Assembly: GCA_963834265.1 (NCBI GenBank)
Contig: CAWIAU010000001.1
Span: 263,572-327,571, forward strand
DNA: 64,000 nt
Reading direction: 5' to 3'
From: an uncultured bacterium
GTDB lineage: Bacteria; Patescibacteriota; Saccharimonadia; Saccharimonadales; 2-12-FULL-41-12
Shown here: piece after piece, positions 9,103 to 41,272 of the stretch
Position numbering within the stretch: the stretch's first letter is position 1
Layout: every line of letters begins with the position of its first letter
Notes under the pieces: generated by a model
Told to the model about the DNA's origin: nothing
The model's database searches: none
What the model saw: the letters and a program-made list of their open reading frames with translations, nothing else
Position numbers and translations under genes: made by a program

Positions 9103-9160
9103 AGGAAAAAGAGCAGCGCAGCGATGAGAAAAAACCTGAGGTTTTGTCTCATTATGTTCG
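9103..9160 (+). repeat. structured motif copy A (immediately upstream of the 23S 5' end)
   Basis: AGGAAAAAGAGCAGC-GCAGCGATGAGAAAAAACCTGAGGTTTTGTCTCATTATGTTCG. Homologous to copies B and C. Confidence 0.7.
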
Positions 9161-12595: not shown

Positions 12596-13050
12596 CGTGA
12601 GACAGTTCGGTTTATATCCGCTGTGGACGTCAGGAAATTTGAGAGGATTTGCCCCTAGTACGAGAGGACCGGGGTGAACGCACCGCTGGTGTACCAATTG
12701 TCATACCAATGGCATCGTTGGGTAGCTATGTGCGGAACAGATAAGCGCTGAAAGCATATTAAGCGCGAAACTGACCTCAAGATTAGATTTCCCTATGAGG
12801 GCCCTGATAGACGATCAGGTTGATAGGTACACGGTGTACGCATAGCAATATGTTTAGCCTAAGTATACTAATAGCCCCACAGATTTTTTGTGAACCATGA
12901 GACCAATTTACTTCGGTGAGTTGATCTCATGGGAATGTATTTGGCTAGTTATTTGTAGTAACTAATAAACAACGTCCGTTTATATTAACTTTTGTCAGTC
13001 ATATCGACACCACATGGACACCGAGTGAGTGAGACTTACGCCTCCCTCCC

Positions 13051-13162
13051 TCGGTGCCCATGGCGCGAGGGAAACACCTGTTCCCATCCCGAACACAGCA
13101 GTTAAGCCTCGCAGCGGTTACAATACTTGGGTTTTAACCCTGGGAAAATAGCACGGTGCCGA
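13051..13162 (+). rRNA. rrf: 5S ribosomal RNA
   Basis: Helix I TCGGTGCC/GGTGCCGA. Conserved CCCATCCCGAACACAGCAGTTAAGCC (loop B/helix III region). 112 nt. Confidence 0.9.
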
Positions 13163-13173
13163 TTTATATAGAA

Positions 13174-21800: not shown

Positions 21801-24800
21801 TAACTATTACAGGCACTAACAGTGGCGAAGGCAGTACGCCGGGCCTTAGTGTTACTTACGGATTCGGTGCTAACACCGCCGTACAGGGCAGCACCCAGCT
21901 TACCTGTGCTTCCGGCAGTGGTGATCTGTCCGGTGGCGGCACTGTCATAACTCTGGGCAGCGGCGGTACCTGCGGTGCCATAACCATATCCGAAGCCCCC
22001 GTCTTTGATACCAGCGTTACCACCCCGCTTATTACTTACGGCGGCGCCCTGACCATCCAGACCACCGCTACCGGTGGCGCTGATGATCTGATCTTTAAAA
22101 CCGCCGGCACGGAAGTTATGCGCCTGCTGGAAAACGGCAATATTTATCTGGAGAAAGGCACTAATGATGTCACCATAGCCGTAAATGCTCCCGGTGCCGC
22201 CGCCACCTACACCTTTGACGGAGCCAGCGGAACTATCCTGACCACTGCCAACTACGTTACTAACCTCGACGCTACCTACGTAAACGAATCCCAGTCGCCG
22301 GCCGCCGGCGATGTCTCCGGTTCATTCACAGCCGGTTTCAGTGTTAACGATGTCCAGAACAATGCCGTTGATCTGGGAGCCGAGACAGTCGGGGACTACA
22401 TGGCCAACCTCGGCACCGTAGTCGGATTAACTATTACAGGCACTAACAGTGGCGAAGGCAGTACGCCGGGCCTTAGTGTTACTTACGGATTCGGTGCTAA
22501 CACCGCCGTACAGGGCAGCACCCAGCTTACCTGTGCTTCCGGCAGTGGTGATCTGTCCGGTGGCGGCACTGTCATAACTCTGGGCAGCGGCGGTACCTGC
22601 GGTGCCATAACCATATCCGAAGCCCCCGTCTTTGATACCAGCGTTACCACCCCGCTTATTACTTACGGCGGCGCCCTGACCATCCAGACCACCGCTACCG
22701 GTGGCGCTGATGATCTGATCTTTAAAACCGCCGGCACGGAAGTTATGCGCCTGCTGGAAAACGGCAATATTTATCTGGAGAAAGGCACTAATGATGTCAC
22801 CATAGCCGTAAATGCTCCCGGTGCCGCCGCCACCTACACCTTTGACGGAGCCAGCGGAACTATCCTGACCACTGCCAACTACGTTACTAACCTCGACGCT
22901 ACCTACGTAAACGAATCCCAGTCGCCGGCCGCCGGCGATGTCTCCGGTTCATTCACAGCCGGTTTCAGTGTTAACGATGTCCAGAACAATGCCGTTGATC
23001 TGGGAGCCGAGACAGTCGGGGACTACATGGCCAACCTCGGCACCGTAGTCGGATTAACTATTACAGGCACTAACAGTGGCGAAGGCAGTACGCCGGGCCT
23101 TAGTGTTACTTACGGATTCGGTGCTAACACCGCCGTACAGGGCAGCACCCAGCTTACCTGTGCTTCCGGCAGTGGTGATCTGTCCGGTGGCGGCACTGTC
23201 ATAACTCTGGGCAGCGGCGGTACCTGCGGTGCCATAACCATATCCGAAGCCCCCGTCTTTGATACCAGCGTTACCACCCCGCTTATTACTTACGGCGGCG
23301 CCCTGACCATCCAGACCACCGCTACCGGTGGCGCTGATGATCTGATCTTTAAAACCGCCGGCACGGAAGTTATGCGCCTGCTGGAAAACGGCAATATTTA
23401 TCTGGAGAAAGGCACTAATGATGTCACCATAGCCGTAAATGCTCCCGGTGCCGCCGCCACCTACACCTTTGACGGAGCCAGCGGAACTATCCTGACCACT
23501 GCCAACTACGTTACTAACCTCGACGCTACCTACGTAAACGAATCCCAGTCGCCGGCCGCCGGCGATGTCTCCGGTTCATTCACAGCCGGTTTCAGTGTTA
23601 ACGATGTCCAGAACAATGCCGTTGATCTGGGAGCCGAGACAGTCGGGGACTACATGGCCAACCTCGGCACCGTAGTCGGATTAACTATTACAGGCACTAA
23701 CAGTGGCGAAGGCAGTACGCCGGGCCTTAGTGTTACTTACGGATTCGGTGCTAACACCGCCGTACAGGGCAGCACCCAGCTTACCTGTGCTTCCGGCAGT
23801 GGTGATCTGTCCGGTGGCGGCACTGTCATAACTCTGGGCAGCGGCGGTACCTGCGGTGCCATAACCATATCCGAAGCCCCCGTCTTTGATACCAGCGTTA
23901 CCACCCCGCTTATTACTTACGGCGGCGCCCTGACCATCCAGACCACCGCTACCGGTGGCGCTGATGATCTGATCTTTAAAACCGCCGGCACGGAAGTTAT
24001 GCGCCTGCTGGAAAACGGCAATATTTATCTGGAGAAAGGCACTAATGATGTCACCATAGCCGTAAATGCTCCCGGTGCCGCCGCCACCTACACCTTTGAC
24101 GGAGCCAGCGGAACTATCCTGACCACTGCCAACTACGTTACTAACCTCGACGCTACCTACGTAAACGAATCCCAGTCGCCGGCCGCCGGCGATGTCTCCG
24201 GTTCATTCACAGCCGGTTTCAGTGTTAACGATGTCCAGAACAATGCCGTTGATCTGGGAGCCGAGACAGTCGGGGACTACATGGCCAACCTCGGCACCGT
24301 AGTCGGATTAACTATTACAGGCACTAACAGTGGCGAAGGCAGTACGCCGGGCCTTAGTGTTACTTACGGATTCGGTGCTAACACCGCCGTACAGGGCAGC
24401 ACCCAGCTTACCTGTGCTTCCGGCAGTGGTGATCTGTCCGGTGGCGGCACTGTCATAACTCTGGGCAGCGGCGGTACCTGCGGTGCCATAACCATATCCG
24501 AAGCCCCCGTCTTTGATACCAGCGTTACCACCCCGCTTATTACTTACGGCGGCGCCCTGACCATCCAGACCACCGCTACCGGTGGCGCTGATGATCTGAT
24601 CTTTAAAACCGCCGGCACGGAAGTTATGCGCCTGCTGGAAAACGGCAATATTTATCTGGAGAAAGGCACTAATGATGTCACCATAGCCGTAAATGCTCCC
24701 GGTGCCGCCGCCACCTACACCTTTGACGGAGCCAGCGGAACTATCCTGACCACTGCCAACTACGTTACTAACCTCGACGCTACCTACGTAAACGAATCCC

Positions 24801-27388
24801 AGTCGCCGGCCGCCGGCGATGTCTCCGGTTCATTCACAGCCGGTTTCAGTGTTAACGATGTCCAGAACAATGCCGTTGATCTGGGAGCCGAGACAGTCGG
24901 GGACTACATGGCCAACCTCGGCACCGTAGTCGGATTAACTATTACAGGCACTAACAGTGGCGAAGGCAGTACGCCGGGCCTTAGTGTTACTTACGGATTC
25001 GGTGCTAACACCGCCGTACAGGGCAGCACCCAGCTTACCTGTGCTTCCGGCAGTGGTGATCTGTCCGGTGGCGGCACTGTCATAACTCTGGGCAGCGGCG
25101 GTACCTGCGGTGCCATAACCATATCCGAAGCCCCCGTCTTTGATACCAGCGTTACCACCCCGCTTATTACTTACGGCGGCGCCCTGACCATCCAGACCAC
25201 CGCTACCGGTGGCGCTGATGATCTGATCTTTAAAACCGCCGGCACGGAAAAAATTCGAATATTAGAAAATGGCACACTGGTATTTGGTACTGGTGCCAAC
25301 AGTGCTAATTTGTACTTGTCTGCAAATGACACTCTGAGGACGGATGATCTGTTTGTAGCAGGAGCAGGATTAAGCGTGTTAGCAAATGGTGCTACAATTG
25401 CTGGTGATTTCAGTATCGACGGACTGGTATTTGATCCAACAGGTAATCTTGTGCTAAACGACACCGTGGATATTGGCTCAGCTACAACAGGACTTCGGGT
25501 AAATACGGACGGGTCAATATTCGACATTGATGGTGTTCTTGTTTTAAACGATCAACTAAACCTAGGCTCATCCTCAACAGGTCTATTAATTACTACATCA
25601 GGAATAATTACGGATATTGATGGGGCAAGTGTTGTATTTGGTGAAAACATCACTGTAAATACAGGAGGTATTACCGTAACAGGCAATAGCACTATTAATG
25701 GGACGCTCGGGTCTTTGACCGGCTTGACTGTAATTAGTGGAGGAGCATCGATAAGTGGAGGCTTGAATAATAACAGTGGCGGACTGACTAACGCCGGATC
25801 TATTACAGGAGTAGGCGGTAATATAACAGGATCAGGAAGTATGACTATATCCTCCGGAGCTGCTGCGGCACTGACGCTAGATTCCGGAACAACCGGTGGC
25901 CTGAACATCGGCACCGGCAATAATGCCAAAACCATCAATATCGGCACCGGTACGGCCGGCAACGCTATCAACATCGGTACCAATAACACCACGGCCGACA
26001 CGATCCAGATTGGCTCGGCTCTGGATACGCTGACGCTCACGGGTTCCTCTTTAACTACATTTGTAATCAACGCAATAACCGTAGACGCTACCGAGTTTAA
26101 CCGGCTCGACGGCAAAAACGCAGCACTGGTTGATGAAAATGACTTCATCAGCGGGGACGGAACTGGCGGTACAAGCAATGGGTCCGGATTGGAAGCAGGT
26201 ACCGGTGGAATTGGGCTATTGCAAGGTTGCACCAACAATCAAATTTTGAAATGGGTAGATGCAAGTTCTGTCTGGAACTGCGCGGCTGACGCCACAGGTA
26301 TTTCTGATTCCCGGGTTAAGAAAAATGTCCAAACTGTCGAAGGAGCTATGCTGGATAAAATTAAGGATATTCGGGTAGTAGAATTTGACTATGACTGCAC
26401 CAGCCCGGCGTTTGCTTACCAGCACTGCGACATAGACCACCAAACAGGTGTTATCGCGCAGGAACTTGCTCAAATCTTTCCGGAACTTGTCACCCAGGAT
26501 GAGCACGGCTATTATAGCGTTAGATACGACGCATTAGCCATCTATAACCTCAAAGCCGTGGGAGAACTAGCACGTTCGTTAGATTCTCAAGGTAACGGTA
26601 AGTTTAATAATGTTTCATCAAATTCACTTGTTGTAAAAGGAGATATTATAGCTGGCACAATCCGTGCTGACAGGATAGAAGGCCTGGACTATGTTGGCCG
26701 GTTTGAATCTTTGGAAGAAAGAGTAGACCATCTTGAGAAAAATAATAACTTTCAGAATAATAACTTTGCGGGCACAGTAGAAGTTGGTTCATTGATTGCC
26801 AATAAAGAAGTTGACCTAAAAAATGATGTGCGAATTAACGGTAGCACAGACCTGCAGAGATTAAATGTAAATCTTGCTTTAATCGCCAAAGACTCCTTTG
26901 AAGTGCTAGGAAGATCTACCTTCAAAGAGGCGTCCGGATTCGAGAAAGATGTACATTTTGATGGCCAAATTAACGTGCTTGGTTACACGAATGTCCAGGG
27001 CCTAAGCGTAAACCTTGACTTGATTGTTAAAGGCTCATTGCAGCTCGACGGGCCGGCCACCTTCAAGGAGGCAGTCAAATTCGAGAAAGACGCTGAATTT
27101 GCGGGTAATGTGTCTGTAAAAGGACAGGCCACGTTCAACGGTGATACGGCGGGGTATGCCATCATTAAAAAAGGCGAAAAAAGCCTTGCGATTAAGTTTA
27201 AAAACCCTAAGCCACAAATACCGATCGTTACCATGTCGCTTGGTAATGGCAAGTTTGCCTCCTACAGTTACCAGAATGTAACAAAAGAGGGCTTCGAGAT
27301 TATTCTGGCTAATGCCGCTGACGAAGATCTTAGCTTCTCATGGATTGCTATTCTAACCCAAAGTGAGGAAATTTCTGCTATGCCGTAG
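18827..27388 (+). CDS. giant repetitive fibre/adhesin-like surface protein 1 (2,853 aa) with internal S74-type autoprocessing domain
   Basis: Uninterrupted 8,562-nt ORF. It has an N-terminal signal/anchor (LALVFLLLFLTGVF), 8.76 identical 209-aa repeats, G/T/N-rich repeats, ISDSRVKKNV..GVIAQELAQIFPELV..YSVRYDALAIYNLKA (S74/ICA pattern), and then 361 aa counted from the Ser to the C-terminus. Confidence 0.9.
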   Translation: MLSQRPRFYNLLVRGKSLALVFLLLFLTGVFSYTRTHTPTPVYAATSANINFQARLQSASGAIVPDGNYHMEFKLYTSASGGSAVWTETRSTGNLVRTVNGYLTVNLGSVNAFPSGMNWDQEHWLTMNVGGSGGSPVYDGEMTPRLKLTATPYAFSAGQLRKTLGANTSVLDFLNPTANRTLNLPDQDGTLCVQGSPDCVDVATTGTTATTSSNSGLEIGIDGLRLLGGCSDNQSLKWDATAEEWKCTSGSGSSIGVRESDGSPSMSADVIEFGPSGASDSEFIVTNEGSGVSRIRLGNDVLLLTNYAATLDATYVNESQSPAAGDVSGSFTAGFSVNDVQNNAVDLGAETVGDYMANLGTVVGLTITGTNSGEGSTPGLSVTYGFGANTAVQGSTQLTCASGSGDLSGGGTVITLGSGGTCGAITISEAPVFDTSVTTPLITYGGALTIQTTATGGADDLIFKTAGTEVMRLLENGNIYLEKGTNDVTIAVNAPGAAATYTFDGASGTILTTANYVTNLDATYVNESQSPAAGDVSGSFTAGFSVNDVQNNAVDLGAETVGDYMANLGTVVGLTITGTNSGEGSTPGLSVTYGFGANTAVQGSTQLTCASGSGDLSGGGTVITLGSGGTCGAITISEAPVFDTSVTTPLITYGGALTIQTTATGGADDLIFKTAGTEVMRLLENGNIYLEKGTNDVTIAVNAPGAAATYTFDGASGTILTTANYVTNLDATYVNESQSPAAGDVSGSFTAGFSVNDVQNNAVDLGAETVGDYMANLGTVVGLTITGTNSGEGSTPGLSVTYGFGANTAVQGSTQLTCASGSGDLSGGGTVITLGSGGTCGAITISEAPVFDTSVTTPLITYGGALTIQTTATGGADDLIFKTAGTEVMRLLENGNIYLEKGTNDVTIAVNAPGAAATYTFDGASGTILTTANYVTNLDATYVNESQSPAAGDVSGSFTAGFSVNDVQNNAVDLGAETVGDYMANLGTVVGLTITGTNSGEGSTPGLSVTYGFGANTAVQGSTQLTCASGSGDLSGGGTVITLGSGGTCGAITISEAPVFDTSVTTPLITYGGALTIQTTATGGADDLIFKTAGTEVMRLLENGNIYLEKGTNDVTIAVNAPGAAATYTFDGASGTILTTANYVTNLDATYVNESQSPAAGDVSGSFTAGFSVNDVQNNAVDLGAETVGDYMANLGTVVGLTITGTNSGEGSTPGLSVTYGFGANTAVQGSTQLTCASGSGDLSGGGTVITLGSGGTCGAITISEAPVFDTSVTTPLITYGGALTIQTTATGGADDLIFKTAGTEVMRLLENGNIYLEKGTNDVTIAVNAPGAAATYTFDGASGTILTTANYVTNLDATYVNESQSPAAGDVSGSFTAGFSVNDVQNNAVDLGAETVGDYMANLGTVVGLTITGTNSGEGSTPGLSVTYGFGANTAVQGSTQLTCASGSGDLSGGGTVITLGSGGTCGAITISEAPVFDTSVTTPLITYGGALTIQTTATGGADDLIFKTAGTEVMRLLENGNIYLEKGTNDVTIAVNAPGAAATYTFDGASGTILTTANYVTNLDATYVNESQSPAAGDVSGSFTAGFSVNDVQNNAVDLGAETVGDYMANLGTVVGLTITGTNSGEGSTPGLSVTYGFGANTAVQGSTQLTCASGSGDLSGGGTVITLGSGGTCGAITISEAPVFDTSVTTPLITYGGALTIQTTATGGADDLIFKTAGTEVMRLLENGNIYLEKGTNDVTIAVNAPGAAATYTFDGASGTILTTANYVTNLDATYVNESQSPAAGDVSGSFTAGFSVNDVQNNAVDLGAETVGDYMANLGTVVGLTITGTNSGEGSTPGLSVTYGFGANTAVQGSTQLTCASGSGDLSGGGTVITLGSGGTCGAITISEAPVFDTSVTTPLITYGGALTIQTTATGGADDLIFKTAGTEVMRLLENGNIYLEKGTNDVTIAVNAPGAAATYTFDGASGTILTTANYVTNLDATYVNESQSPAAGDVSGSFTAGFSVNDVQNNAVDLGAETVGDYMANLGTVVGLTITGTNSGEGSTPGLSVTYGFGANTAVQGSTQLTCASGSGDLSGGGTVITLGSGGTCGAITISEAPVFDTSVTTPLITYGGALTIQTTATGGADDLIFKTAGTEKIRILENGTLVFGTGANSANLYLSANDTLRTDDLFVAGAGLSVLANGATIAGDFSIDGLVFDPTGNLVLNDTVDIGSATTGLRVNTDGSIFDIDGVLVLNDQLNLGSSSTGLLITTSGIITDIDGASVVFGENITVNTGGITVTGNSTINGTLGSLTGLTVISGGASISGGLNNNSGGLTNAGSITGVGGNITGSGSMTISSGAAAALTLDSGTTGGLNIGTGNNAKTINIGTGTAGNAINIGTNNTTADTIQIGSALDTLTLTGSSLTTFVINAITVDATEFNRLDGKNAALVDENDFISGDGTGGTSNGSGLEAGTGGIGLLQGCTNNQILKWVDASSVWNCAADATGISDSRVKKNVQTVEGAMLDKIKDIRVVEFDYDCTSPAFAYQHCDIDHQTGVIAQELAQIFPELVTQDEHGYYSVRYDALAIYNLKAVGELARSLDSQGNGKFNNVSSNSLVVKGDIIAGTIRADRIEGLDYVGRFESLEERVDHLEKNNNFQNNNFAGTVEVGSLIANKEVDLKNDVRINGSTDLQRLNVNLALIAKDSFEVLGRSTFKEASGFEKDVHFDGQINVLGYTNVQGLSVNLDLIVKGSLQLDGPATFKEAVKFEKDAEFAGNVSVKGQATFNGDTAGYAIIKKGEKSLAIKFKNPKPQIPIVTMSLGNGKFASYSYQNVTKEGFEIILANAADEDLSFSWIAILTQSEEISAMP
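19757..25249 (+). repeat. in-frame tandem repeat, 8.76 x 627 bp, no differences seen between copies
   Basis: The landmark ACGCTACCTA recurs at 19761, 20388, 21015 and onward. GGCACGGAA at 20225 and 25241 are 8 x 627 bp apart. All translated units are identical. Confidence 0.95.
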
Positions 27389-29680: not shown

Positions 29681-32600
29681 ATGTATCAAGAAACTCAAAC
29701 CAAAAGCCGTTCCAGAGTGTACGTTACCGTAGGTGATGCGGCGGAGCTATTAGGTGTTTCTATCGATACTGTCCGACGTTGGGAAAAGAGCGGCAAACTG
29801 CATGCTAAACGATTAGATGGCAAGAATCGATACTTCCCCAAAGATGAATTAGAGCAATTCAGAGCTCATCAGCCCCTGTCTACAACAGAAGTGGCTAAGC
29901 GACTTAAGACCTCTGCTTCCAGCGTACGTCGTCTCGAAGCTAGTGGCCAGATAACGGCTGACCGTGCTGAGAACGGAAAGCGTCTTTACTCTTTGGCAAG
30001 TATAGTTGACTATTTGGAAAGTAAATCTGCTCCATTGCAACCAGCAATATCAGATAAACAGGAATTAGCGTCAGGTGTAGCCCTGAATCAGGTAACACCG
30101 ATGCCGGCACTGACTATCGCACCGCCACCGCGTCAACATACCCCGCGTCATGGATTAAAGCATCATTTACAGCAGCCTAAGAAGTTATGGGCTACTCATT
30201 CCGGCAGATTAAATTACCATATTTTTCAAAAAGTAATCATCTATAGTGCTACGGCATGTGTCTCCGTAGTGATGATATTGACGCTATTCTTTCTGATGTT
30301 TCCGGGAACTGCCCGCACGACATTTTATAATCAATCCCATAACAGTGGTAAACAGTTTGTTTCGAAACAAGCTGACGGTCTCTTAGTACGGGCCTTCAAG
30401 CCCTTTACAAATGCAGCCCTGGGCGTTGTCGAGGTAGTTAACCCGGAAGTCCGCAATACTATTCAGCCTAGGGCCATAGATGACGTGAATGAAGTATTCG
30501 CGCCTGACTCGCAGGGAAATATTATCACCAGGTACACCTTTAGCCCGCCGAACTCATCTTATCTGAAGATACCAGATCAGGGGTTAGTTACAAATCTGAA
30601 TAGTGAATTTGTCGGAGGCTATAAACCGGGCGAAAAGAAAGGAGATCTGGCTATCTTACCTCTGGGAGGTGATCAGCTTAAAGATAAGTCACTTAATGGT
30701 GACCAGCTGGCCGATGGAGCAATTAAGCTTAGCCATCTTTCTCCTACTTTGATAGCTTCTCTGAAGAGCGGAGGCACAGGAGGAAGTACTTTTGTAAGCG
30801 GTGCTGGCAGCGCCGGACCAGCAGGCCCATCAGGAGTTAACGGGGCGGCTGGAGCTGCAGGTGCCAACGGTGCTCCCGGTTCTCAAGGAGTAGCAGGTCC
30901 AGCCGGAGCAGCCGGACCTGCTGGATCACAAGGAGCTAACGGGGCACCGGGTGCTCCAGGAGCACAAGGCCCGACTGGTCCGCAAGGACCTCCAGGCGCT
31001 GGAGCTACGATAGCCTTGCAAGAGTCTGACGGTAGTCCGCTGGTTAGCGGCGTATCAAACATACAGTTTGGACCCACCAGCAACTCTTCTGACGAGTTTA
31101 TCCTGACAGACTTAACAGGAGGTCAGGTACGAATACAACTGGGCACTACGGTGCTTCTAACAACGAATTACACTACTACTCTGGATCCTATATATCTCAA
31201 TATTGGAGAATCTCCCGGGATCGGAGATATTACGGGCAGCTTCAGCGGGGGTTTGCAGGTAGCACCTGATGCGGTGGCGCTAGGTACCGATACCACTGGT
31301 AATTATTTAACTACTCTATCTGGCAGCACGGGTCTAATTGTCAGTGGATCGGGTTCAGAAAATGCGGCAGCTAGCATTGCTTTAGACGTAGTTACTACTG
31401 GTACAACAGGATTGTCCAGTGCCAACTCCGGGCTTGAGTTGGGTCCCGACGGTCTGCGTTTGCTTGGTGGATGCGCAACAAACCATGTATTGAAATGGAA
31501 CGGAACTACTTGGGCATGTGCTACCGATAACAGTAGTAGCGCTGCTGATGTTAAGGAAAATGGTGTAATTATTACTCCCACAGCAACAGCTATAGATTTT
31601 TTCGGTTCAGATTTTAATGTAACCAACAATGTTACGCAGGCAAATATAGCATTAGATTATATTAACTCGGGAATTACTCGTCGCACGGGGGCAGAGATAA
31701 TAAGCGGCAACTGGGCATTTAATGATAATAGCTTTACGCTGCAAGATAATGCTGACTCTAGTAAAAAACTTGCAATAGAATTATCGGGAATTACAACAGG
31801 AACAACGCGTACTTTAACAGCCCCAAACGCCAGCGGGACCATCATTAGCACGGGGAATTTAACTGACATTGTAAATGTGGGTACGCTCACAAGCGGTGTT
31901 TGGCAGGGTTCTGTTGTAGCCGTGCAGTATGGGGGAACAGGGGCCAACACCTTTACGTCTAACGGATTGCTATATGGAAATGGCAACAGTGCTGTACAGG
32001 CCACATCCGCGGGCACGGCCGGACAATTATTAGTTGCAAATGCTAGCAGTGTACCAACGTTTGCTACTCTATCGGGTGATGCGACCTTATCTGGCGCCGG
32101 CCTGCTAACATTAGCTAACTCGGGCGTTACAGCAAATACTTATGGAAGCTCAACTCAGGTACCGGTTTTTGCGGTTGACTCAAAAGGTAGAATCACTAAT
32201 GTAACTAATACAACAATAACAGGGGTCGCACCGGGTGGAACCGCCGGAGGTGATTTGAGTGGAACTTATCCCAACCCAAGCGTTTCAAGAATCAATGGAG
32301 TCGCTCTTGGTAGTACAACGGCAACGGGAGGAAATTTGCTGCTTGCCAATGGTACAAGCTGGGTCAGTCAAGCTCTTTCGGGAGATTTAAGTGTAAATGG
32401 GGCAGGCGTTGCCTCGATAGCAAACAACGCCATCAGTACCTCAAAAATTTTGGACGCCAATGTAACAAACATTAAATTAGCAAACTCCTCCTTAACAGTT
32501 ATGGCTGGAACAGGATTATCTGGCGGAGGAGCTATAAGTTTAGGTGGCACGACTACGCTTAACTTAGCTAATACGGCTGTATCGGCAGGGAGTTACGGCA

Positions 32601-35600
32601 GTAGCTCCGCGGTCCCTACTTTTACTGTAGATTCCCAGGGACGGCTGACAATGGCTGGTAATACAACCTTAGCTAATGCGGGACTGCAGAATTCAAGTTT
32701 GACCTTAACAGCGGGCAATGGACTAGCCGGGGGAGGAAGCGTTGCTTTAGGCGCATCTACAAGCCTTAACGTTCAGTATGGTGCTATCGCGAATACATCT
32801 GTCCAAGGCAATACTCAGATTACTTGTACGCCTGGTGCTGGTAATTTGTCCGGAGGGGGTACGGTTATAACACTGGGCTCAGGTGGAGCATGTGGTGCTA
32901 TTAATACGAATGCAGCGGTAAATTTTGCTACAAGTGTTACAACTCCACTACTTACGTCCATTGGTCCGATTACAATACAATCTGATCCCAGTGTTGGTAG
33001 TGACGACATAATATTCAATAGTGCCGGTAGCGAGATTTTTCGTTTACTTGAAACAGGGGAATTTAAGTTTGAACGCGGCTCAAACGATGCGTTCTTTTCT
33101 ATTGCAACTCCTAGTGGCGCGCCTGCTACTTATACTTTTTCCGGCGTATCCGGAACTGTCCTTACTAGTTCAAATTTCAGCAGTAGCTTAGACAGTTCTT
33201 ATGTGAACATAGGCGAATCCCCGTCAGCTGGCGACATTAACGGATCATTTGGGGGAGGTTTAAGCATTGGATCAGACGCAGTTGCTTTAGGGACAGACAC
33301 TACAGGCAACTATCTGGCTACACTTAGCGGAGGCACAGGATTGACAGTTACTGGATCTGGCAGCGAAAGTGCTGCGGTGACTTTAGCGCTCGATGTAATA
33401 ACTACAGGAACAACAGCTACTACAAACTCTAACTCTGGCTTAGAACTCGGTAGTGACGGGCTAAGATTGCTGGGGGGTTGTGCTTCTAATGAGATACTCA
33501 AATGGAATGGATCAACTTGGGCTTGCGCTGCAGATAATGGTACCGGAGCTGCTCCCACACTTCAAGAGAATTATGACAATGATCCCAATGGAGCGAATGT
33601 GATAATTGGATTGTCCAATGTTGACGGGGGTATATTTATTCGTGATAACGCGTCGCCAATTGGCGGTAACTTATTTGCCGTACAAAGCGACGGAGGTAGC
33701 ACTACTTATTTAGGTATCACTGCAAGTGGATCCAGCGTATCGGGAACTTTCTCGGCGACCGGTGCTATTAATGGCGCCACCATTTCTGGTGGCTCTCTAA
33801 ACTCTACTTCGGTTAATGGTCTTAGTGTTTCGGGGGGCATTATAACTGTGGGTACCTGGAATGGTACTGCTCTAACAGACTCTTATGTTTCTGATACTCT
33901 AACCTCAAGTATTTTCATAGGTTCAGGAAGTACATCAAATGCTGTAGATTTAGCTAGTGCCGAAGTAGCCGGCAGCCTGGCCGACGGAAATGTCTCAGAT
34001 ACCTTAACCATAGGTGCTTCCGGCAGCGTGGCTGACGGAGCTTTAAGTGTCAACGTGACTAAACTGGGGACTGCCATAGACCTGGCTACAGCTGAGGTAG
34101 CCGGTAATCTGAGAGCTAATAATCTGCAGAGTGCCGGAGCCGACCTTGGCGCGACTAATGTTAACATTGACCTGAGCAATACCAACGGAAGCTTCGTCAC
34201 CAACTTAACCGTAGACGGTACTATTACTGCCGCTACCTTTGCCGGCAACCTGACAGGTAATGTCACCGGCAACGCTTCAACCGCTACCGCTCTGGCTAAC
34301 AATCCGACAGATTGCGGAGCCAACCAGTTCGCCATTACCATTGCCGCCAGCGGTAACCTGACCTGCGCCGCGCTGACTGATGCCGATATACCGAATAACA
34401 TTACAATTGATCTGGCTGCCAACGCCACCACAGCTGTTAATCTGGTTGGTTCCGGCAGTACCACCAATGCCGTAGATCTGGCTACAGCTGAGGTATCCGG
34501 CAACTTACGGGCTAACAACCTGCAGAACGCCGCCGCCGACCTGGGAGGAGCTGACGTCAACATTAACCTCAGCAATACCAACGGAAGCTTCGTGACTAAT
34601 CTGACGGTTGACGGCACCATCACCGCCGCCACCTTTGCCGGCGCTCTTACGGGCAATGTCACCGGTAATGTCACCGGCAACGCTTCAACCGCTACCGCTC
34701 TGGCTAACAATCCGACAGATTGCGGAGCCAACCAGTTCGCCATTACCATTGCCGCCAGCGGTAACCTGACCTGCGTGTCCTTAACAGATCTGGATATACC
34801 GAACAACATTACAATTGATCTGGCTGCCGCCGCTACCGCGCTGGCTAACAACCCCACTGACTGTAGCGCTGATACTTACGCTACTACTATCGCTGCCAGC
34901 GGTAACCTGACTTGTGCTTCCATTACCGACGCTTCATTATCTGCTAACGTCACTAAACTGGGCAGTAGTATCCAAAACAGTGAAGTAGACGACGACCTGA
35001 CTATTAGTGCTTCCGGCAGCGTGGCTGACGGAGCTTTAAGTGTCAACGTGACTAAACTGGGGACTGCCATAGACCTGGCTACAGCTGAGGTAGCCGGTAA
35101 TCTGAGAGCTAATAATCTGCAGAGTGCCGGAGCCGACCTTGGCGCGACTAATGTTAACATTGACCTGAGCAATACCAACGGAAGCTTCGTCACCAACTTA
35201 ACCGTAGACGGTACTATTACTGCCGCTACCTTTGCCGGCAACCTGACAGGTAATGTCACCGGCAACGCTTCAACCGCTACCGCTCTGGCTAACAATCCGA
35301 CAGATTGCGGAGCCAACCAGTTCGCCATTACCATTGCCGCCAGCGGTAACCTGACCTGCGCCGCGCTGACTGATGCCGATATACCGAATAACATTACAAT
35401 TGATCTGGCTGCCAACGCCACCACAGCTGTTAATCTGGTTGGTTCCGGCAGTACCACCAATGCCGTAGATCTGGCTACAGCTGAGGTATCCGGCAACTTA
35501 CGGGCTAACAACCTGCAGAACGCCGCCGCCGACCTGGGAGGAGCTGACGTCAACATTAACCTCAGCAATACCAACGGAAGCTTCGTGACTAATCTGACGG

Positions 35601-38600
35601 TTGACGGCACCATCACCGCCGCCACCTTTGCCGGCGCTCTTACGGGCAATGTCACCGGTAATGTCACCGGCAACGCTTCAACCGCTACCGCTCTGGCTAA
35701 CAATCCGACAGATTGCGGAGCCAACCAGTTCGCCATTACCATTGCCGCCAGCGGTAACCTGACCTGCGTGTCCTTAACAGATCTGGATATACCGAACAAC
35801 ATTACAATTGATCTGGCTGCCGCCGCTACCGCGCTGGCTAACAACCCCACTGACTGTAGCGCTGATACTTACGCTACTACTATCGCTGCCAGCGGTAACC
35901 TGACTTGTGCTTCCATTACCGACGCTTCATTATCTGCTAACGTCACTAAACTGGGCAGTAGTATCCAAAACAGTGAAGTAGACGACGACCTGACTATTAG
36001 TGCTTCCGGCAGCGTGGCTGACGGAGCTTTAAGTGTCAACGTGACTAAACTGGGGACTGCCATAGACCTGGCTACAGCTGAGGTAGCCGGTAATCTGAGA
36101 GCTAATAATCTGCAGAGTGCCGGAGCCGACCTTGGCGCGACTAATGTTAACATTGACCTGAGCAATACCAACGGAAGCTTCGTCACCAACTTAACCGTAG
36201 ACGGTACTATTACTGCCGCTACCTTTGCCGGCAACCTGACAGGTAATGTCACCGGCAACGCTTCAACCGCTACCGCTCTGGCTAACAATCCGACAGATTG
36301 CGGAGCCAACCAGTTCGCCATTACCATTGCCGCCAGCGGTAACCTGACCTGCGCCGCGCTGACTGATGCCGATATACCGAATAACATTACAATTGATCTG
36401 GCTGCCAACGCCACCACAGCTGTTAATCTGGTTGGTTCCGGCAGTACCACCAATGCCGTAGATCTGGCTACAGCTGAGGTATCCGGCAACTTACGGGCTA
36501 ACAACCTGCAGAACGCCGCCGCCGACCTGGGAGGAGCTGACGTCAACATTAACCTCAGCAATACCAACGGAAGCTTCGTGACTAATCTGACGGTTGACGG
36601 CACCATCACCGCCGCCACCTTTGCCGGCGCTCTTACGGGCAATGTCACCGGTAATGTCACCGGCAACGCTTCAACCGCTACCGCTCTGGCTAACAATCCG
36701 ACAGATTGCGGAGCCAACCAGTTCGCCATTACCATTGCCGCCAGCGGTAACCTGACCTGCGTGTCCTTAACAGATCTGGATATACCGAACAACATTACAA
36801 TTGATCTGGCTGCCGCCGCTACCGCGCTGGCTAACAACCCCACTGACTGTAGCGCTGATACTTACGCTACTACTATCGCTGCCAGCGGTAACCTGACTTG
36901 TGCTTCCATTACCGACGCTTCATTATCTGCTAACGTCACTAAACTGGGCAGTAGTATCCAAAACAGTGAAGTAGACGACGACCTGACTATTAGTGCTTCC
37001 GGCAGCGTGGCTGACGGAGCTTTAAGTGTCAACGTGACTAAACTGGGGACTGCCATAGACCTGGCTACAGCTGAGGTAGCCGGTAATCTGAGAGCTAATA
37101 ATCTGCAGAGTGCCGGAGCCGACCTTGGCGCGACTAATGTTAACATTGACCTGAGCAATACCAACGGAAGCTTCGTCACCAACTTAACCGTAGACGGTAC
37201 TATTACTGCCGCTACCTTTGCCGGCAACCTGACAGGTAATGTCACCGGCAACGCTTCAACCGCTACCGCTCTGGCTAACAATCCGACAGATTGCGGAGCC
37301 AACCAGTTCGCCATTACCATTGCCGCCAGCGGTAACCTGACCTGCGCCGCGCTGACTGATGCCGATATACCGAATAACATTACAATTGATCTGGCTGCCA
37401 ACGCCACCACAGCTGTTAATCTGGTTGGTTCCGGCAGTACCACCAATGCCGTAGATCTGGCTACAGCTGAGGTATCCGGCAACTTACGGGCTAACAACCT
37501 GCAGAACGCCGCCGCCGACCTGGGAGGAGCTGACGTCAACATTAACCTCAGCAATACCAACGGAAGCTTCGTGACTAATCTGACGGTTGACGGCACCATC
37601 ACCGCCGCCACCTTTGCCGGCGCTCTTACGGGCAATGTCACCGGTAATGTCACCGGCAACGCTTCAACCGCTACCGCTCTGGCTAACAATCCGACAGATT
37701 GCGGAGCCAACCAGTTCGCCATTACCATTGCCGCCAGCGGTAACCTGACCTGCGTGTCCTTAACAGATCTGGATATACCGAACAACATTACAATTGATCT
37801 GGCTGCCGCCGCTACCGCGCTGGCTAACAACCCCACTGACTGTAGCGCTGATACTTACGCTACTACTATCGCTGCCAGCGGTAACCTGACTTGTGCTTCC
37901 ATTACCGACGCTTCATTATCTGCTAACGTCACTAAACTGGGCAGTAGTATCCAAAACAGTGAAGTAGACGACGACCTGACTATTAGTGCTTCCGGCAGCG
38001 TGGCTGACGGAGCTTTAAGTGTCAACGTGACTAAACTGGGGACTGCCATAGACCTGGCTACAGCTGAGGTAGCCGGTAATCTGAGAGCTAATAATCTGCA
38101 GAGTGCCGGAGCCGACCTTGGCGCGACTAATGTTAACATTGACCTGAGCAATACCAACGGAAGCTTCGTCACCAACTTAACCGTAGACGGTACTATTACT
38201 GCCGCTACCTTTGCCGGCAACCTGACAGGTAATGTCACCGGCAACGCTTCAACCGCTACCGCTCTGGCTAACAATCCGACAGATTGCGGAGCCAACCAGT
38301 TCGCCATTACCATTGCCGCCAGCGGTAACCTGACCTGCGCCGCGCTGACTGATGCCGATATACCGAATAACATTACAATTGATCTGGCTGCCAACGCCAC
38401 CACAGCTGTTAATCTGGTTGGTTCCGGCAGTACCACCAATGCCGTAGATCTGGCTACAGCTGAGGTATCCGGCAACTTACGGGCTAACAACCTGCAGAAC
38501 GCCGCCGCCGACCTGGGAGGAGCTGACGTCAACATTAACCTCAGCAATACCAACGGAAGCTTCGTGACTAATCTGACGGTTGACGGCACCATCACCGCCG

Positions 38601-41272
38601 CCACCTTTGCCGGCGCTCTTACGGGCAATGTCACCGGTAATGTCACCGGCAACGCTTCAACCGCTACCGCTCTGGCTAACAATCCGACAGATTGCGGAGC
38701 CAACCAGTTCGCCATTACCATTGCCGCCAGCGGTAACCTGACCTGCGTGTCCTTAACAGATCTGGATATACCGAACAACATTACAATTGATCTGGCTGCC
38801 GCCGCTACCGCGCTGGCTAACAACCCCACTGACTGTAGCGCTGATACTTACGCTACTACTATCGCTGCCAGCGGTAACCTGACTTGTGCTTCCATTACCG
38901 ACGCTTCATTATCTGCTAACGTCACTAAACTGGGCAGTAGTATCCAAAACAGTGAAGTAGACGACGACCTGACTATTAGTGCTTCCGGCAGCGTGGCTGA
39001 CGGAGCTTTAAGTGTCAACGTGACTAAACTGGGGACTGCCATAGACCTGGCTACAGCTGAGGTAGCCGGTAATCTGAGAGCTAATAATCTGCAGAGTGCC
39101 GGAGCCGACCTTGGCGCGACTAATGTTAACATTGACCTGAGCAATACCAACGGAGCCTTCGTCACCAACTTAACTCTGGATGGCAGCATAACCGCACCAA
39201 TAGTGCAGAATGCTGGAGCAATAACGCTAGGCACGACGGCAACAGCCGGAGGGGACGATATAGTACTACAAACAGCTGGAGTCGAGCGGTTTAGAATATT
39301 AGAAAACGGCAATATATCCAACGCCAATAGCTGGACAATAGATTTGTCCAGTACCTCTGCCAGGACGCTTACTGTAACCAATAGCAATACTGGTGTGGCC
39401 AGCTTGAGTGTCGAAGGAGGAGGTACTTTTGGCAATACGCTTACCGTATCGACTGGAGGACTGACAGTAACAGGGAACAGCACCATTACGGGTACACTTA
39501 CCGGTCTCACAGGTCTGACGGTGGCTTCAGGTGGGGCATCTGTTAGTGGCGGCCTAAATAATAATAGTGGAGGTATTACTAATGCCGGAGCAATCTCTGG
39601 CGCTACGACGATATCTGCATCAGGGGCAGTAACTGCCGCCACCGTCACCAATACAATAAATGGCCTGATAATTAATTCGGGCGCAGTATCGGGAGCCACA
39701 ACTATATCAGCTTCAGGCAACATTTCGATTAACGGAACTAATGTGTATACGCAAAACAGCCAGAACGGCATAACCGTAGCTGCCTGTGCAGCTGATCAAT
39801 ATATAGGTAATGGAGTAAGGCTATCCGGTGGAATTGTTACAGCTGGTTCTTGCAGGACTGATGCGACCGGTATTTCTGACTCAAGGCTAAAAGATAATGT
39901 ATCTGAGTACGATTCTTCAAACATATTAGATAAGTTAGCTCAACTTAAGCCAGTTACTTATAATTTTAATGACACGTATAAAGATCTAACTGGTAAACAA
40001 GAGGACCAAGGACTTCAATATGGTTTCTTGGCTCAGGATATGAGGAATATTTTTCCGGACTTAATTAGCGAATATAACGACAGTGGTTATTTGCAAATAA
40101 ATTACCATGCGCTCTATGCGATCCTGACTTCTTCTGTCCTGGAATTAGATAAAAAAGTTAAAAATCTCAGCATGAATAGCTTCACCGATCTTGATGGCAG
40201 CGGACTCGAGATTAAGCTAAAATACGACCAGAAATTTAGTATTAAAAATGAGCAGAACGAAGACAAAGCTGTTATTGATGCTCAAGGCAATGCGATATTT
40301 GACGGTGAAATTACAACAAGAAGTATAAATGCCGGATCAATCTTAACTTCTGGTGTTGGTCAGCGGTATGATGCTGCCGATACGGATCTTGAGACAGGGG
40401 AAGTCGTAATCGTTGATGATAACGGACAAGTGCACCGCTCAACTGCAGCCAACCAGAGAGGTCTTATTGGAGTAATTAGTAGCAATGGGGGACTTATGGT
40501 CGGCTCAAGTTCCAGTAGCAATAGTGTCAACGTAGCTGCGGCAGGAAATGTGAGTGTAAGAGTTTCTACGGAGAATGGTGTTATAAGTGCCGGTGATCCA
40601 TTAACTTCATCATCGATTCCAGGTGTGGCCATGAAATCCAGCGGCGGCTCCACAATAGGAGTGGCCACAAGCGGATTCAGCGGTTCCGGACAAGGGCAAA
40701 TTACAATGAGTGCGAGCAACAATAGCTCGAGCTTAGCAGGATTAGGTGATCTGAATAGTCTCGAAAATAAAGTTAGTGATCTGGAGGAGCAGGTTCAGAC
40801 TATCCAAAATGGGCTTCAAACAAACGGTGGACAAAATATTGACCTCACCAACCTAACCATAGGCCGAGCTACTATTACACTGGATATGTTGGTTGAGGGG
40901 GCTCTGATAGTCAATGGACCTGCTGAGTTCAAGGGTAGCACGATCTTTGATAGCATCGTAACCTTTGGAGACAGCATTATGGTGAATGGCGACCTAAGCG
41001 TCAAAGGTACAGCTACGTTTAATAATAATGCCGGGGGATATGCTGTTATTTCGGCTGGCAAACAATCCGTTCATGTTAGCTTCACTAAGCCTTATGCTAC
41101 TCCTCCAATTGTCAATATATCACTGGGCGGAGGTCAGTTTGCTCAATACGCCTACAACAATGTTACGGAAACAGGCTTTGATATAGTTCTGGCAATACCG
41201 GCATCATCGAACCTGCAGTTTACTTGGACTGCTATGAGCATCAACAGCGCCAACACCTTTGTTCAGAACTAA
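29681..41272 (+). CDS. giant membrane-anchored fibre-like protein 2 (3,863 aa): 2 x HTH, TM, collagen, repeats, S74-type domain
   Basis: Uninterrupted 11,592-nt ORF. Residues 13-60 and 66-113 are MerR/excisionase-type HTH (VTVGDAAELLGVSIDTVRRWEKSGKL..). The TM helix spans residues 184-207. There are about 22 Gly-X-Y triplets and 5.17 identical 331-aa repeats. ISDSRLKDNV..YGFLAQDMRNIFPDLI..LQINYHALYAIL is the S74 pattern, and 465 aa run from the Ser to the C-terminus. Confidence 0.9.
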   Translation: MYQETQTKSRSRVYVTVGDAAELLGVSIDTVRRWEKSGKLHAKRLDGKNRYFPKDELEQFRAHQPLSTTEVAKRLKTSASSVRRLEASGQITADRAENGKRLYSLASIVDYLESKSAPLQPAISDKQELASGVALNQVTPMPALTIAPPPRQHTPRHGLKHHLQQPKKLWATHSGRLNYHIFQKVIIYSATACVSVVMILTLFFLMFPGTARTTFYNQSHNSGKQFVSKQADGLLVRAFKPFTNAALGVVEVVNPEVRNTIQPRAIDDVNEVFAPDSQGNIITRYTFSPPNSSYLKIPDQGLVTNLNSEFVGGYKPGEKKGDLAILPLGGDQLKDKSLNGDQLADGAIKLSHLSPTLIASLKSGGTGGSTFVSGAGSAGPAGPSGVNGAAGAAGANGAPGSQGVAGPAGAAGPAGSQGANGAPGAPGAQGPTGPQGPPGAGATIALQESDGSPLVSGVSNIQFGPTSNSSDEFILTDLTGGQVRIQLGTTVLLTTNYTTTLDPIYLNIGESPGIGDITGSFSGGLQVAPDAVALGTDTTGNYLTTLSGSTGLIVSGSGSENAAASIALDVVTTGTTGLSSANSGLELGPDGLRLLGGCATNHVLKWNGTTWACATDNSSSAADVKENGVIITPTATAIDFFGSDFNVTNNVTQANIALDYINSGITRRTGAEIISGNWAFNDNSFTLQDNADSSKKLAIELSGITTGTTRTLTAPNASGTIISTGNLTDIVNVGTLTSGVWQGSVVAVQYGGTGANTFTSNGLLYGNGNSAVQATSAGTAGQLLVANASSVPTFATLSGDATLSGAGLLTLANSGVTANTYGSSTQVPVFAVDSKGRITNVTNTTITGVAPGGTAGGDLSGTYPNPSVSRINGVALGSTTATGGNLLLANGTSWVSQALSGDLSVNGAGVASIANNAISTSKILDANVTNIKLANSSLTVMAGTGLSGGGAISLGGTTTLNLANTAVSAGSYGSSSAVPTFTVDSQGRLTMAGNTTLANAGLQNSSLTLTAGNGLAGGGSVALGASTSLNVQYGAIANTSVQGNTQITCTPGAGNLSGGGTVITLGSGGACGAINTNAAVNFATSVTTPLLTSIGPITIQSDPSVGSDDIIFNSAGSEIFRLLETGEFKFERGSNDAFFSIATPSGAPATYTFSGVSGTVLTSSNFSSSLDSSYVNIGESPSAGDINGSFGGGLSIGSDAVALGTDTTGNYLATLSGGTGLTVTGSGSESAAVTLALDVITTGTTATTNSNSGLELGSDGLRLLGGCASNEILKWNGSTWACAADNGTGAAPTLQENYDNDPNGANVIIGLSNVDGGIFIRDNASPIGGNLFAVQSDGGSTTYLGITASGSSVSGTFSATGAINGATISGGSLNSTSVNGLSVSGGIITVGTWNGTALTDSYVSDTLTSSIFIGSGSTSNAVDLASAEVAGSLADGNVSDTLTIGASGSVADGALSVNVTKLGTAIDLATAEVAGNLRANNLQSAGADLGATNVNIDLSNTNGSFVTNLTVDGTITAATFAGNLTGNVTGNASTATALANNPTDCGANQFAITIAASGNLTCAALTDADIPNNITIDLAANATTAVNLVGSGSTTNAVDLATAEVSGNLRANNLQNAAADLGGADVNINLSNTNGSFVTNLTVDGTITAATFAGALTGNVTGNVTGNASTATALANNPTDCGANQFAITIAASGNLTCVSLTDLDIPNNITIDLAAAATALANNPTDCSADTYATTIAASGNLTCASITDASLSANVTKLGSSIQNSEVDDDLTISASGSVADGALSVNVTKLGTAIDLATAEVAGNLRANNLQSAGADLGATNVNIDLSNTNGSFVTNLTVDGTITAATFAGNLTGNVTGNASTATALANNPTDCGANQFAITIAASGNLTCAALTDADIPNNITIDLAANATTAVNLVGSGSTTNAVDLATAEVSGNLRANNLQNAAADLGGADVNINLSNTNGSFVTNLTVDGTITAATFAGALTGNVTGNVTGNASTATALANNPTDCGANQFAITIAASGNLTCVSLTDLDIPNNITIDLAAAATALANNPTDCSADTYATTIAASGNLTCASITDASLSANVTKLGSSIQNSEVDDDLTISASGSVADGALSVNVTKLGTAIDLATAEVAGNLRANNLQSAGADLGATNVNIDLSNTNGSFVTNLTVDGTITAATFAGNLTGNVTGNASTATALANNPTDCGANQFAITIAASGNLTCAALTDADIPNNITIDLAANATTAVNLVGSGSTTNAVDLATAEVSGNLRANNLQNAAADLGGADVNINLSNTNGSFVTNLTVDGTITAATFAGALTGNVTGNVTGNASTATALANNPTDCGANQFAITIAASGNLTCVSLTDLDIPNNITIDLAAAATALANNPTDCSADTYATTIAASGNLTCASITDASLSANVTKLGSSIQNSEVDDDLTISASGSVADGALSVNVTKLGTAIDLATAEVAGNLRANNLQSAGADLGATNVNIDLSNTNGSFVTNLTVDGTITAATFAGNLTGNVTGNASTATALANNPTDCGANQFAITIAASGNLTCAALTDADIPNNITIDLAANATTAVNLVGSGSTTNAVDLATAEVSGNLRANNLQNAAADLGGADVNINLSNTNGSFVTNLTVDGTITAATFAGALTGNVTGNVTGNASTATALANNPTDCGANQFAITIAASGNLTCVSLTDLDIPNNITIDLAAAATALANNPTDCSADTYATTIAASGNLTCASITDASLSANVTKLGSSIQNSEVDDDLTISASGSVADGALSVNVTKLGTAIDLATAEVAGNLRANNLQSAGADLGATNVNIDLSNTNGSFVTNLTVDGTITAATFAGNLTGNVTGNASTATALANNPTDCGANQFAITIAASGNLTCAALTDADIPNNITIDLAANATTAVNLVGSGSTTNAVDLATAEVSGNLRANNLQNAAADLGGADVNINLSNTNGSFVTNLTVDGTITAATFAGALTGNVTGNVTGNASTATALANNPTDCGANQFAITIAASGNLTCVSLTDLDIPNNITIDLAAAATALANNPTDCSADTYATTIAASGNLTCASITDASLSANVTKLGSSIQNSEVDDDLTISASGSVADGALSVNVTKLGTAIDLATAEVAGNLRANNLQSAGADLGATNVNIDLSNTNGAFVTNLTLDGSITAPIVQNAGAITLGTTATAGGDDIVLQTAGVERFRILENGNISNANSWTIDLSSTSARTLTVTNSNTGVASLSVEGGGTFGNTLTVSTGGLTVTGNSTITGTLTGLTGLTVASGGASVSGGLNNNSGGITNAGAISGATTISASGAVTAATVTNTINGLIINSGAVSGATTISASGNISINGTNVYTQNSQNGITVAACAADQYIGNGVRLSGGIVTAGSCRTDATGISDSRLKDNVSEYDSSNILDKLAQLKPVTYNFNDTYKDLTGKQEDQGLQYGFLAQDMRNIFPDLISEYNDSGYLQINYHALYAILTSSVLELDKKVKNLSMNSFTDLDGSGLEIKLKYDQKFSIKNEQNEDKAVIDAQGNAIFDGEITTRSINAGSILTSGVGQRYDAADTDLETGEVVIVDDNGQVHRSTAANQRGLIGVISSNGGLMVGSSSSSNSVNVAAAGNVSVRVSTENGVISAGDPLTSSSIPGVAMKSSGGSTIGVATSGFSGSGQGQITMSASNNSSSLAGLGDLNSLENKVSDLEEQVQTIQNGLQTNGGQNIDLTNLTIGRATITLDMLVEGALIVNGPAEFKGSTIFDSIVTFGDSIMVNGDLSVKGTATFNNNAGGYAVISAGKQSVHVSFTKPYATPPIVNISLGGGQFAQYAYNNVTETGFDIVLAIPASSNLQFTWTAMSINSANTFVQN
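30800..31006 (+). repeat. collagen-like Gly-X-Y tract (~22 uninterrupted triplets)
   Basis: GAGSAGPAGPSGVNGAAGAAGANGAPGSQGVAGPAGAAGPAGSQGANGAPGAPGAQGPTGPQGPPGAGA, with Gly at every third position. Confidence 0.9.
34013..39152 (+). repeat. in-frame tandem repeat, 5.17 x 993 bp, no differences seen between copies; each unit has degenerate internal sub-repeats
   Basis: TGCTTCCGGCAGCG occurs at 34015, 35008 ... 38980 (5 x 993). The antisense ORFs recur at exactly 993-bp spacing with identical translations. Confidence 0.95.

Follow-up and report, generated by a model that had tools for sequence, protein, structure and literature searches.

Evidence for a very recent in-frame tandem expansion in the shaft of a predicted giant surface fiber of a Saccharimonadales-like bacterium

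Periscope Proteins are bacterial surface proteins of variable length, such as SasG, Rib/alpha C, Sgo_0707 and CdrA, in which a long stalk of in-frame tandem repeats, nearly or fully identical in DNA, allows intragenic recombination, the length of the protein is proposed to set the projection of its distal domain, and long reads are needed for the analysis of the arrays (Whelan et al., 2021, PMC8201768). Very large surface-targeted proteins with transmembrane (TM) or signal sequences have also been described in the Absconditicoccaceae, a group of Patescibacteria; they carry fibronectin III, adhesin-repeat, concanavalin and integrin-type domains and have been proposed to act in host recognition by these episymbiotic, ultrasmall cells (PMC13059738). 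Here, a stretch of 64,000 nt from an uncultured bacterium (assembly GCA_963834265.1, contig CAWIAU010000001.1, positions 263,572 to 327,571; hereafter, the window) was analyzed, which contains a giant open reading frame (ORF), named giant gene 2, with a tandem array in its central part. Like the Periscope Proteins, giant 2 carries long in-frame tandem repeats, with 100% DNA identity in 5.18 x 993 bp. Patescibacteria live attached to other microbes, by means of recognition and attachment that are poorly understood. A concrete candidate for such a function is provided by this locus, with a conserved, syntenic giant fiber gene whose shaft, in two lineages or more, appears to have been remodeled by duplications of very recent date.

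The self-comparison of the window at a lag of 993 nt gave one unbroken exact run of 4,148 nt. This run delimits a tandem array at 34014..39154 (5,141 bp, 5.18 x 993 bp) with zero mismatches; it comprises five 993-bp units that do not differ from each other, followed by the first 176 bp of a sixth. Since 993 is 3 x 331 codons, the array is in frame within the ORF, where it encodes aa 1445-3158, 44% of the 3,863 aa of the protein. The 14-mer marker TGCTTCCGGCAGCG was found at exactly six positions (34015 + n x 993, up to 38980), against an expectation of 0 in shuffled sequences. The array was delimited by our own lag scans in place of Tandem Repeats Finder, which left it blank because the longest period allowed was 500. 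In the same way, self-BLASTP of the unit and of the whole giant 2 protein returned nothing beyond the identity match, and tiled queries were used instead. The exact period of 331 codons, the spacing of the marker and the identity of the copies had all been read from the letters in a first-pass annotation of this DNA; computational alignment of the units without any mismatch confirmed the three of them, and the limits given there (34013-39152, 5.17 copies) were slightly refined. The observation is thus correct and lies far beyond chance.

The edges of the array were also analyzed. Beyond its right edge, 18 of 20 nt still match, after which the similarity decays into a diverged module start and then into a different domain. 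The right flank is thus a diverged continuation of the module and, therefore, the array ends within an older homology. The left junction showed a weak homology between the flank ('DTLTI|GASGS') and the corresponding residues inside the array ('DDLTI|SASGS').

The unit is itself a composite of older parts, which are, in order, a 20-aa lead, module A of 132 aa, module B of 118 aa, module C of 37 aa and a 24-aa tail. When unit nt 59-416 (A) were aligned to unit nt 455-824 (B), the identity was 81.9% over 370 nt, and a third partial copy at unit nt 817-904 was ~75% identical to both. Modules A and B differ at 58 of the 136 aligned codons, 30 of them with synonymous changes only and 28 with non-synonymous changes. 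As many of these differences are synonymous, the A/B duplication is old and has been kept under constraint. By contrast, no difference has accumulated among the five 993-bp units. These data support two ages of amplification, one of old diverged modules and another of recent identical units, as the first-pass annotation had proposed together with the diverged duplication inside the unit and the third partial Cys-pair copy, both of which were found at the positions given above.

An old array could also have been kept uniform by concerted evolution (gene conversion) without a recent expansion from one unit, but this is quite unlikely. The ortholog of giant 2 in another genome (locus L001, described below) has a module region of similar length, ~1,650 aa compared with the 1,714 aa of the array, made of old and diverged modules, and a long shaft is therefore ancestral. 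Gene conversion, however, would have had to erase all the differences between units and yet leave A and B at 82% identity; in addition, the period is exact, the edges are sharp, and the modules of L001 have not been homogenized. Both explanations overlap in their mechanism, since the same recombination is used by both.

The explanation that we favor, with a probability of about 0.7, is that a 331-aa segment in the shaft of a giant surface fiber was amplified in tandem and in frame, very recently, to give the array. It would have started by unequal homologous recombination or replication slippage between older '(G/S)ASGSVADGALSVNVTKLGTAIDLATAEV...NTNG' copies located 993 bp apart. An ancestor with two copies of the first 176 nt at this distance would give the first duplication by unequal exchange, and later unequal exchange between whole units would make the array grow. 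With respect to an allele with one unit, the process would have added 4 x 331 = 1,324 residues (34% of the protein) and increased the Cys modules in the region from 3 to 15, resulting in a longer fiber or in more modules while both ends of the protein stay undisturbed. Since the copies are identical at the DNA level, their number should be unstable, rising or falling in frame. The best reading of the array is that it may work like those of the Periscope Proteins in changing the length of the shaft. If the copy number varies within populations, the length trick known from the Periscope Proteins of pathogens would operate here in a phage-like trimeric fiber. Arrays of this kind are invisible in short-read assemblies.

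The domains of the giant 2 protein were searched along its whole length (Table 1). At the N-terminus, two helix-turn-helix (HTH) stretches were each matched above the cut-off by the Pfam families HTH_17 (PF12728; 9.3e-18, 64.7 bits) and MerR (PF00376; 3.1e-17, 62.5 bits); the same region matched TIGR01764 with 49.8 bits, and the matches were confined to the N-terminal 115 residues. The Kyte-Doolittle profile, in 19-residue windows, rose above 1.9 only at aa 184-193. The collagen-like run scored 26.6 bits with Pfam Collagen (PF01391), under the cut-off of 27.2. This run is separated from the array by ~1,000 residues, which consist of further repeat modules with relatives in the neighboring giant gene 1, and a Gly/Thr-rich stretch separates the array from a Peptidase_S74 domain (PF13884, 51.6 bits against a cut-off of 22), which opens with S-D-S-R-L-K at aa 3399. 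The catalytic Ser of the S74 domains and a Lys located five residues downstream form the motif S-D-x-R-x-K, which is intact in giant 2 (SDSRLK). From the Ser of this motif to the C-terminus there are 465 residues, 400 of them beyond the S74 domain, ending in a domain that is 43-46% identical to the C-terminus of giant 1 and is also present in L001 and in other members of the family. Among the PHROG families of phage tail fibers, phrog_366 matched the collagen region with 3.5e-12, and phrog_1980 matched the C-terminal part with 7.7e-15.

Collagen runs and S74 chaperones belong to trimeric fibers. In phage fibers, the S74 chaperone drives the folding of the trimer and then cleaves itself off, and the released chaperone has ~150 residues. 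Because both elements of giant 2 are typical of such fibers, they suggest a membrane-anchored, probably homotrimeric fiber that would have an intracellular N-terminus and would end distally in the C-terminus. From the N- to the C-terminus, this protein would consist of two cytoplasmic HTH domains, one TM anchor, an extracellular collagen-like triple helix, a shaft of ~47-aa modules, the S74 chaperone and the C-terminal domain, so that the array would lie in the part exposed at the cell surface.

Relatives with the same organization were then found by an exhaustive search with the 331-aa unit against 1.84 billion representatives, in which 1,017 proteins passed the limit of E<=0.001 and 67 passed that of E<=1e-30. 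The best matches were the giant proteins P0121, P0122, P0123, P0124, P0127, P0128 and P0157, which show the same layout of two HTH domains, a TM segment, often a collagen run, modules, the SDxRxK motif and the C-terminal domain. Among them, P0121 has 4,863 aa and P0122 has 5,145 aa and is 75% identical in the unit; the HTH region is highly conserved in both. The JGI name of P0122 is 'fibronectin-binding autotransporter adhesin', and P0127 (2,491 aa) is named by NCBI 'MerR family DNA-binding transcriptional regulator [Candidatus Saccharimonadales bacterium]'. The naming of relatives as MerR regulators is misleading; in P0127, the name describes 4% of the protein. All eight of the genome loci with relatives of the unit belong to Patescibacteria. 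In L001 (1721..2300), P0121-P0128 and P0157, as in giant 2, a strongly conserved pair of MerR/excisionase HTH domains is joined by a single TM segment to a giant, predicted extracellular fiber.

Two loci, L001 and L013, contain positional orthologs and share with the window the gene order giant gene, small ORF, ROK, S1 and IF-2. The S1 protein of L001 is 80% identical to that of the window, and its giant protein has 4,811 aa, the same domains including Peptidase_S74, and 15 Cys modules, old and diverged, with 65-77% DNA identity. In the ortholog of L013, from a more distant relative, an exact tandem duplication of 1,419-bp period (473 codons) arose independently, and its exact self-match extends over 1,356 nt. 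The coding sequences of the giant gene, S1 and IF-2 fall into several ORFs at L013, which probably reflects frameshift errors of an error-prone long-read assembly. In the window, giant gene 1, neighbor and paralog of giant gene 2, holds another mismatch-free array at 19757..25249 (8.76 x 627 bp, 209 codons) with a different Cys-pair module (QLTCASGSGDLSGGGTVITLGSGGTC). Giant 1 has a signal- or TM-like N-terminus in place of the HTH domains and has the Peptidase_S74 and C-terminal domains in common with giant 2. Near-identical long repeats were also found in other members of the family, and the number of Cys modules across it ranged from 3 to 17. Therefore, given L013, the array of giant 1, this range and the repeats found elsewhere, the duplication of the shaft is recurrent in this gene family. 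The first-pass annotation had read the array as consistent with ongoing selection on fiber length or valency; such selection is a hypothesis, and what the comparison shows is the repeated occurrence of duplications in the orthologs. The array of giant 2 was the youngest and largest shaft duplication among the cases compared.

Several points weigh against the recent expansion of a surface fiber as described above. The surface location, the trimer state, the disulfides and the S74 cleavage are predictions from the sequence, and the protein continues after the S74 motif for much more than ~150 residues, so its processing may differ from that of phage fibers. In the AlphaFold model of the unit (mean pLDDT 67.8, pTM 0.30), confidence was limited to the Cys modules and, therefore, a rod-like shape of the shaft is tentative. 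The variation in copy number is a prediction; exact look-ups of giant 2 and two of its neighbors, the GTDB representatives and a scan of JGI metagenomes, which returned one distant locus, yielded no second strain of this species. Finally, the five copies and their perfect identity rest on one assembly, and polishing can homogenize copies.

This last point leads to the main rival explanation, an artifact in which the repeat exists, but the assembler, or a consensus polishing that averages the reads of all copies, produced the unit count, the lack of differences among units, or both. The full gene is present in one assembly only, and the exact look-up of giant 2 as a whole gave no other record. 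The window holds two perfect arrays, which polishing could produce, and the frameshift-split genes of L013 show that long-read assemblies of such genomes can err. In an independent assembly, a 3,067-bp Logan contig of run ERR12037361, the 210-aa protein encoded downstream of giant 2 was also found. The final 715 codons of giant 2 form the start of this contig, which corresponds to window position 39125, 30 nt before the last base of the array, so this short-k assembly breaks at the array. Logan assemblies use k=31, and where a repeat has two continuations, a de Bruijn graph must break exactly k-1 nt before its end. The break at k-1 nt inside the array end therefore supports the repeat boundary at 39154 in real reads, with at least two continuations, and leaves the copies uncounted. 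Moreover, the ORF stays open over 3,863 codons with all the units in frame, an independent assembly of a different organism contains the exact 1,419-bp duplication in the orthologous gene, and single long reads easily span an array of 5.1 kb. An artifact is thus considered unlikely.

The conserved core of the ~47-aa repeat was defined as 'DADVPxxITIxLAATATALAANPTDCxANQFATxIAAxGNLTCAAL' (Cys-x16-Cys). In AlphaFold models, this module was predicted with confidence as a helix plus a beta-hairpin, and the two Cys may form a disulfide. The core had no match in Pfam, NCBIfam or PDB sequences, and no description of the giant fiber family was found in the literature. Many short environmental proteins contain the module in head-to-tail repeats; when the unit was used in a word-indexed search, 267 proteins were retrieved, every one of them short. 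What is less ordinary in this locus is the protein family itself, which joins HTH domains, a TM segment and a giant phage-like fiber, is conserved and syntenic in Saccharimonadales and is built on this module.

The first-pass annotation had compared the Cys-pair motif to small units of tail-fiber-like proteins. This proposal was partly sustained. The motif does belong to a conserved ~47-aa module, and the module occurs in a phage structural locus (L010-L012), where, in the protein P0009 (546 aa, L010 8001..9641), PTR repeats of the type 'DARLTDARTP..HTH' are followed by four 47-aa Cys modules in tandem; the PTR match lies outside the core of the Cys module. The gene of P0009 is two genes downstream of a phage portal gene, and the locus also contains tail-tube and tail-terminator genes. 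One viral protein of BFVD matched the module as well (Foldseek E 2.6e-5). By contrast, no relatives were found among 50,697 deposited phage genomes of INPHARED (tblastn) or in IMG/VR contigs. The position of P0009, two genes downstream of the portal, is unusual for a tail fiber.

A second Cys-pair motif, 'GLRLLGGCxxNxILKWNGxxWxCAxD', was observed in both giants and in their relatives and was matched to no family. In giant 1, L001 and L002, one copy of this motif immediately precedes the S74 domain or the C-terminal region.

The genes around giant 2 were used to determine the origin of the window. They encode the C-terminus of GyrA, the 16S, 23S and 5S rRNAs, GpsA, a ROK kinase, S1, IF-2, PriA and a class II ribonucleotide reductase. 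A protein encoded on a 720,390-bp NCBI/ENA contig matches this IF-2 with 100% identity, and the named relatives of IF-2 are from 'Candidatus Saccharimonadales bacterium' and 'Patescibacteria group bacterium'. The window is therefore part of a bacterial chromosome from a Saccharimonadales-like member of the Patescibacteria. That giant 2 could be a phage or tailocin tail-fiber gene in a prophage, and not a cellular surface fiber, is very improbable. The PHROG matches, the Peptidase_S74 domain, typical of phage fibers, and the presence of the Cys module in a phage structural locus would fit a prophage. But the gene is flanked by housekeeping genes in an order kept in three genomes (giant gene, small ORF, ROK, S1 and IF-2), the window has no portal, terminase, capsid or tail genes, the protein opens with HTH domains and a TM anchor, and neither IMG/VR nor the phage genomes contained a relative. 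A mobile element was also considered as the origin of the array and rejected; neither a transposase nor an integrase lies close to the array, which is strictly in frame.

Compared with the systems described so far, the predicted fiber combines known traits in a different way. Giant 2 differs from the Periscope Proteins in that its unit is a compound 331-aa block of three modules instead of one globular domain, it is probably a homotrimer (collagen run, S74 chaperone), and it would be anchored by an N-terminal TM segment after HTH domains, with the C-terminus as its distal end; its host is a Patescibacteria bacterium, and the repeat number is known here from one strain. It resembles the phage fibers with S74 domains, such as K1F endosialidase and the T5 L-shaped fiber, in the PF13884 match above the cut-off with its S-D-x-R-x-K motif, the fibrous repeat-rich shaft, the PHROG tail-fiber matches and the Cys module in common with a phage structural protein. 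However, it is chromosomal, in a conserved housekeeping neighborhood, and has N-terminal HTH domains and a TM anchor; the putative cleavage Ser is followed by 465 residues and not by a short chaperone, and the protein is ~5 to 10 times longer than typical fibers.

The likeness to trimeric autotransporter adhesins, such as BadA and AtaA, lies in a very long, probably trimeric fiber whose number of stalk modules varies among relatives. The envelope and the anchoring differ, and the shaft module has no relation to theirs. The Pfam matches on the full giant 2 protein included neither a YadA-type anchor nor head/neck domains, and the identity of giant 2 as one of these adhesins was rejected for this reason. 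As in the Absconditicoccaceae, giant 2 is a giant, TM-bearing protein of an ultrasmall bacterium, but its family is built from collagen, a Cys-pair module without Pfam match and S74, and no perfect array was reported in the study of that group (PMC13059738).

A further and rather doubtful possibility concerns the N-terminal end of the family, which might work as a single-polypeptide contact sensor relaying host contact or fiber tension directly to DNA. A phage-derived, length-variable trimeric fiber would reach the host cell, the same chain would cross the membrane once, and the HTH pair would relay the signal either while tethered to the membrane or once released. The perfect array would then tune the reach of the fiber. 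If true, this would be a new type of signaling device in episymbiotic ultrasmall bacteria.

On the opposite strand, antisense ORFs recur with the array. The four internal 324-aa ORFs are identical, and the first one (33883..34857) differs in 38 residues toward its C-terminus, where it leaves the left edge of the array, in agreement with the first-pass annotation, which had listed five such ORFs with only the first one altered at this edge. The six long minus-strand ORFs might be taken for a repeated family of small proteins or for a mobile element, but that they are real genes is extremely improbable. They had no Pfam match and lie wholly within an unbroken sense ORF of 3,863 codons, which encodes a protein with domains at both ends and with homologs in 1,017 clusters, and long antisense ORFs are expected in Ala/Gly/Thr-rich repeats such as these, with a G+C content of 54%. 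Because they match no family and are located inside a sense ORF with recognizable domains and many homologs, the antisense ORFs are by-products, shadows of the sense gene and not genes.

Table 1. Coordinates of giant gene 2, its array and the related features (window positions, unless a contig or aa numbering is indicated).
Feature	Coordinates	Strand	Description
Giant gene 2	29681..41272	+	3,863-aa ORF holding the array
HTH domains	29720..30025	+	Two N-terminal MerR/excisionase-type domains (aa 14 to ~115), presumably cytoplasmic
Predicted membrane anchor	30230..30313	+	Sole strongly hydrophobic segment (aa ~184-211), Kyte-Doolittle
Collagen-like run	30806..31003	+	22 uninterrupted G-X-Y triplets (aa 376-441)
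Array unit 1	34014-35006	+	
Array unit 2	35007-35999	+	
Array unit 3	36000-36992	+	
Array unit 4	36993-37985	+	
Array unit 5	37986-38978	+	
Partial unit	38979-39154	+	
Long module A, unit 1	34073..34468	+	132 aa, one Cys-x16-Cys motif; recurs every 993 bp
Long module B, unit 1	34469..34822	+	118 aa; DNA 82% identical to A
Short module C, unit 1	34823..34933	+	Cys-pair core only; DNA ~75% identical to the corresponding stretches of A and B
Right flank	39155..39200	+	Diverged module continuation, GAFVTNLTLDGSITA versus GSFVTNLTVDGTITA in the array
Peptidase_S74 domain	39875..40063	+	Intramolecular chaperone (aa 3399-3461), Pfam 1.2e-13
C-terminal domain	41069..41233	+	Weak H-type-lectin resemblance, Pfam H_lectin 0.0012, below cut-off
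Six antisense ORFs	33883..39771	-	Five of 324 aa, one of 307 aa; recur with the array, by-products
Giant gene 1	18827..27388	+	2,853 aa, neighbor and paralog of giant gene 2
L013 duplication	8536..11310		ENA ERZ25039476 contig_11806
Second Cys-pair motif, giant 2	aa 598-613, 1267-1282; ~31472..31519, ~33479..33526		
Second Cys-pair motif, giant 1	aa 230-247, 2468-2485		

Additionally, some features of the window outside the giant genes were observed. Downstream of IF-2, a 969-aa ORF (47584..50493, plus strand) had no Pfam match and is present with equal length on a Logan contig of the same organism. The arrangement of the rRNA genes within 2285..13164 is unusual, as the 16S (2285-3754) and the 23S (9161-12892) are 5.4 kb apart. 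The match to the 23S spans 3,732 nt compared with the 2,925 positions of the model and thus includes ~800 nt extra; the ORFs inside the 23S region showed no homing-endonuclease domains. The genes for tRNA-Ile(GAT) (8057-8133) and tRNA-Ala(TGC) (8497-8573) are located between the 16S and the 23S on the opposite strand, and an ORF for an HNH endonuclease (4856..5368, minus strand) lies in the same spacer.

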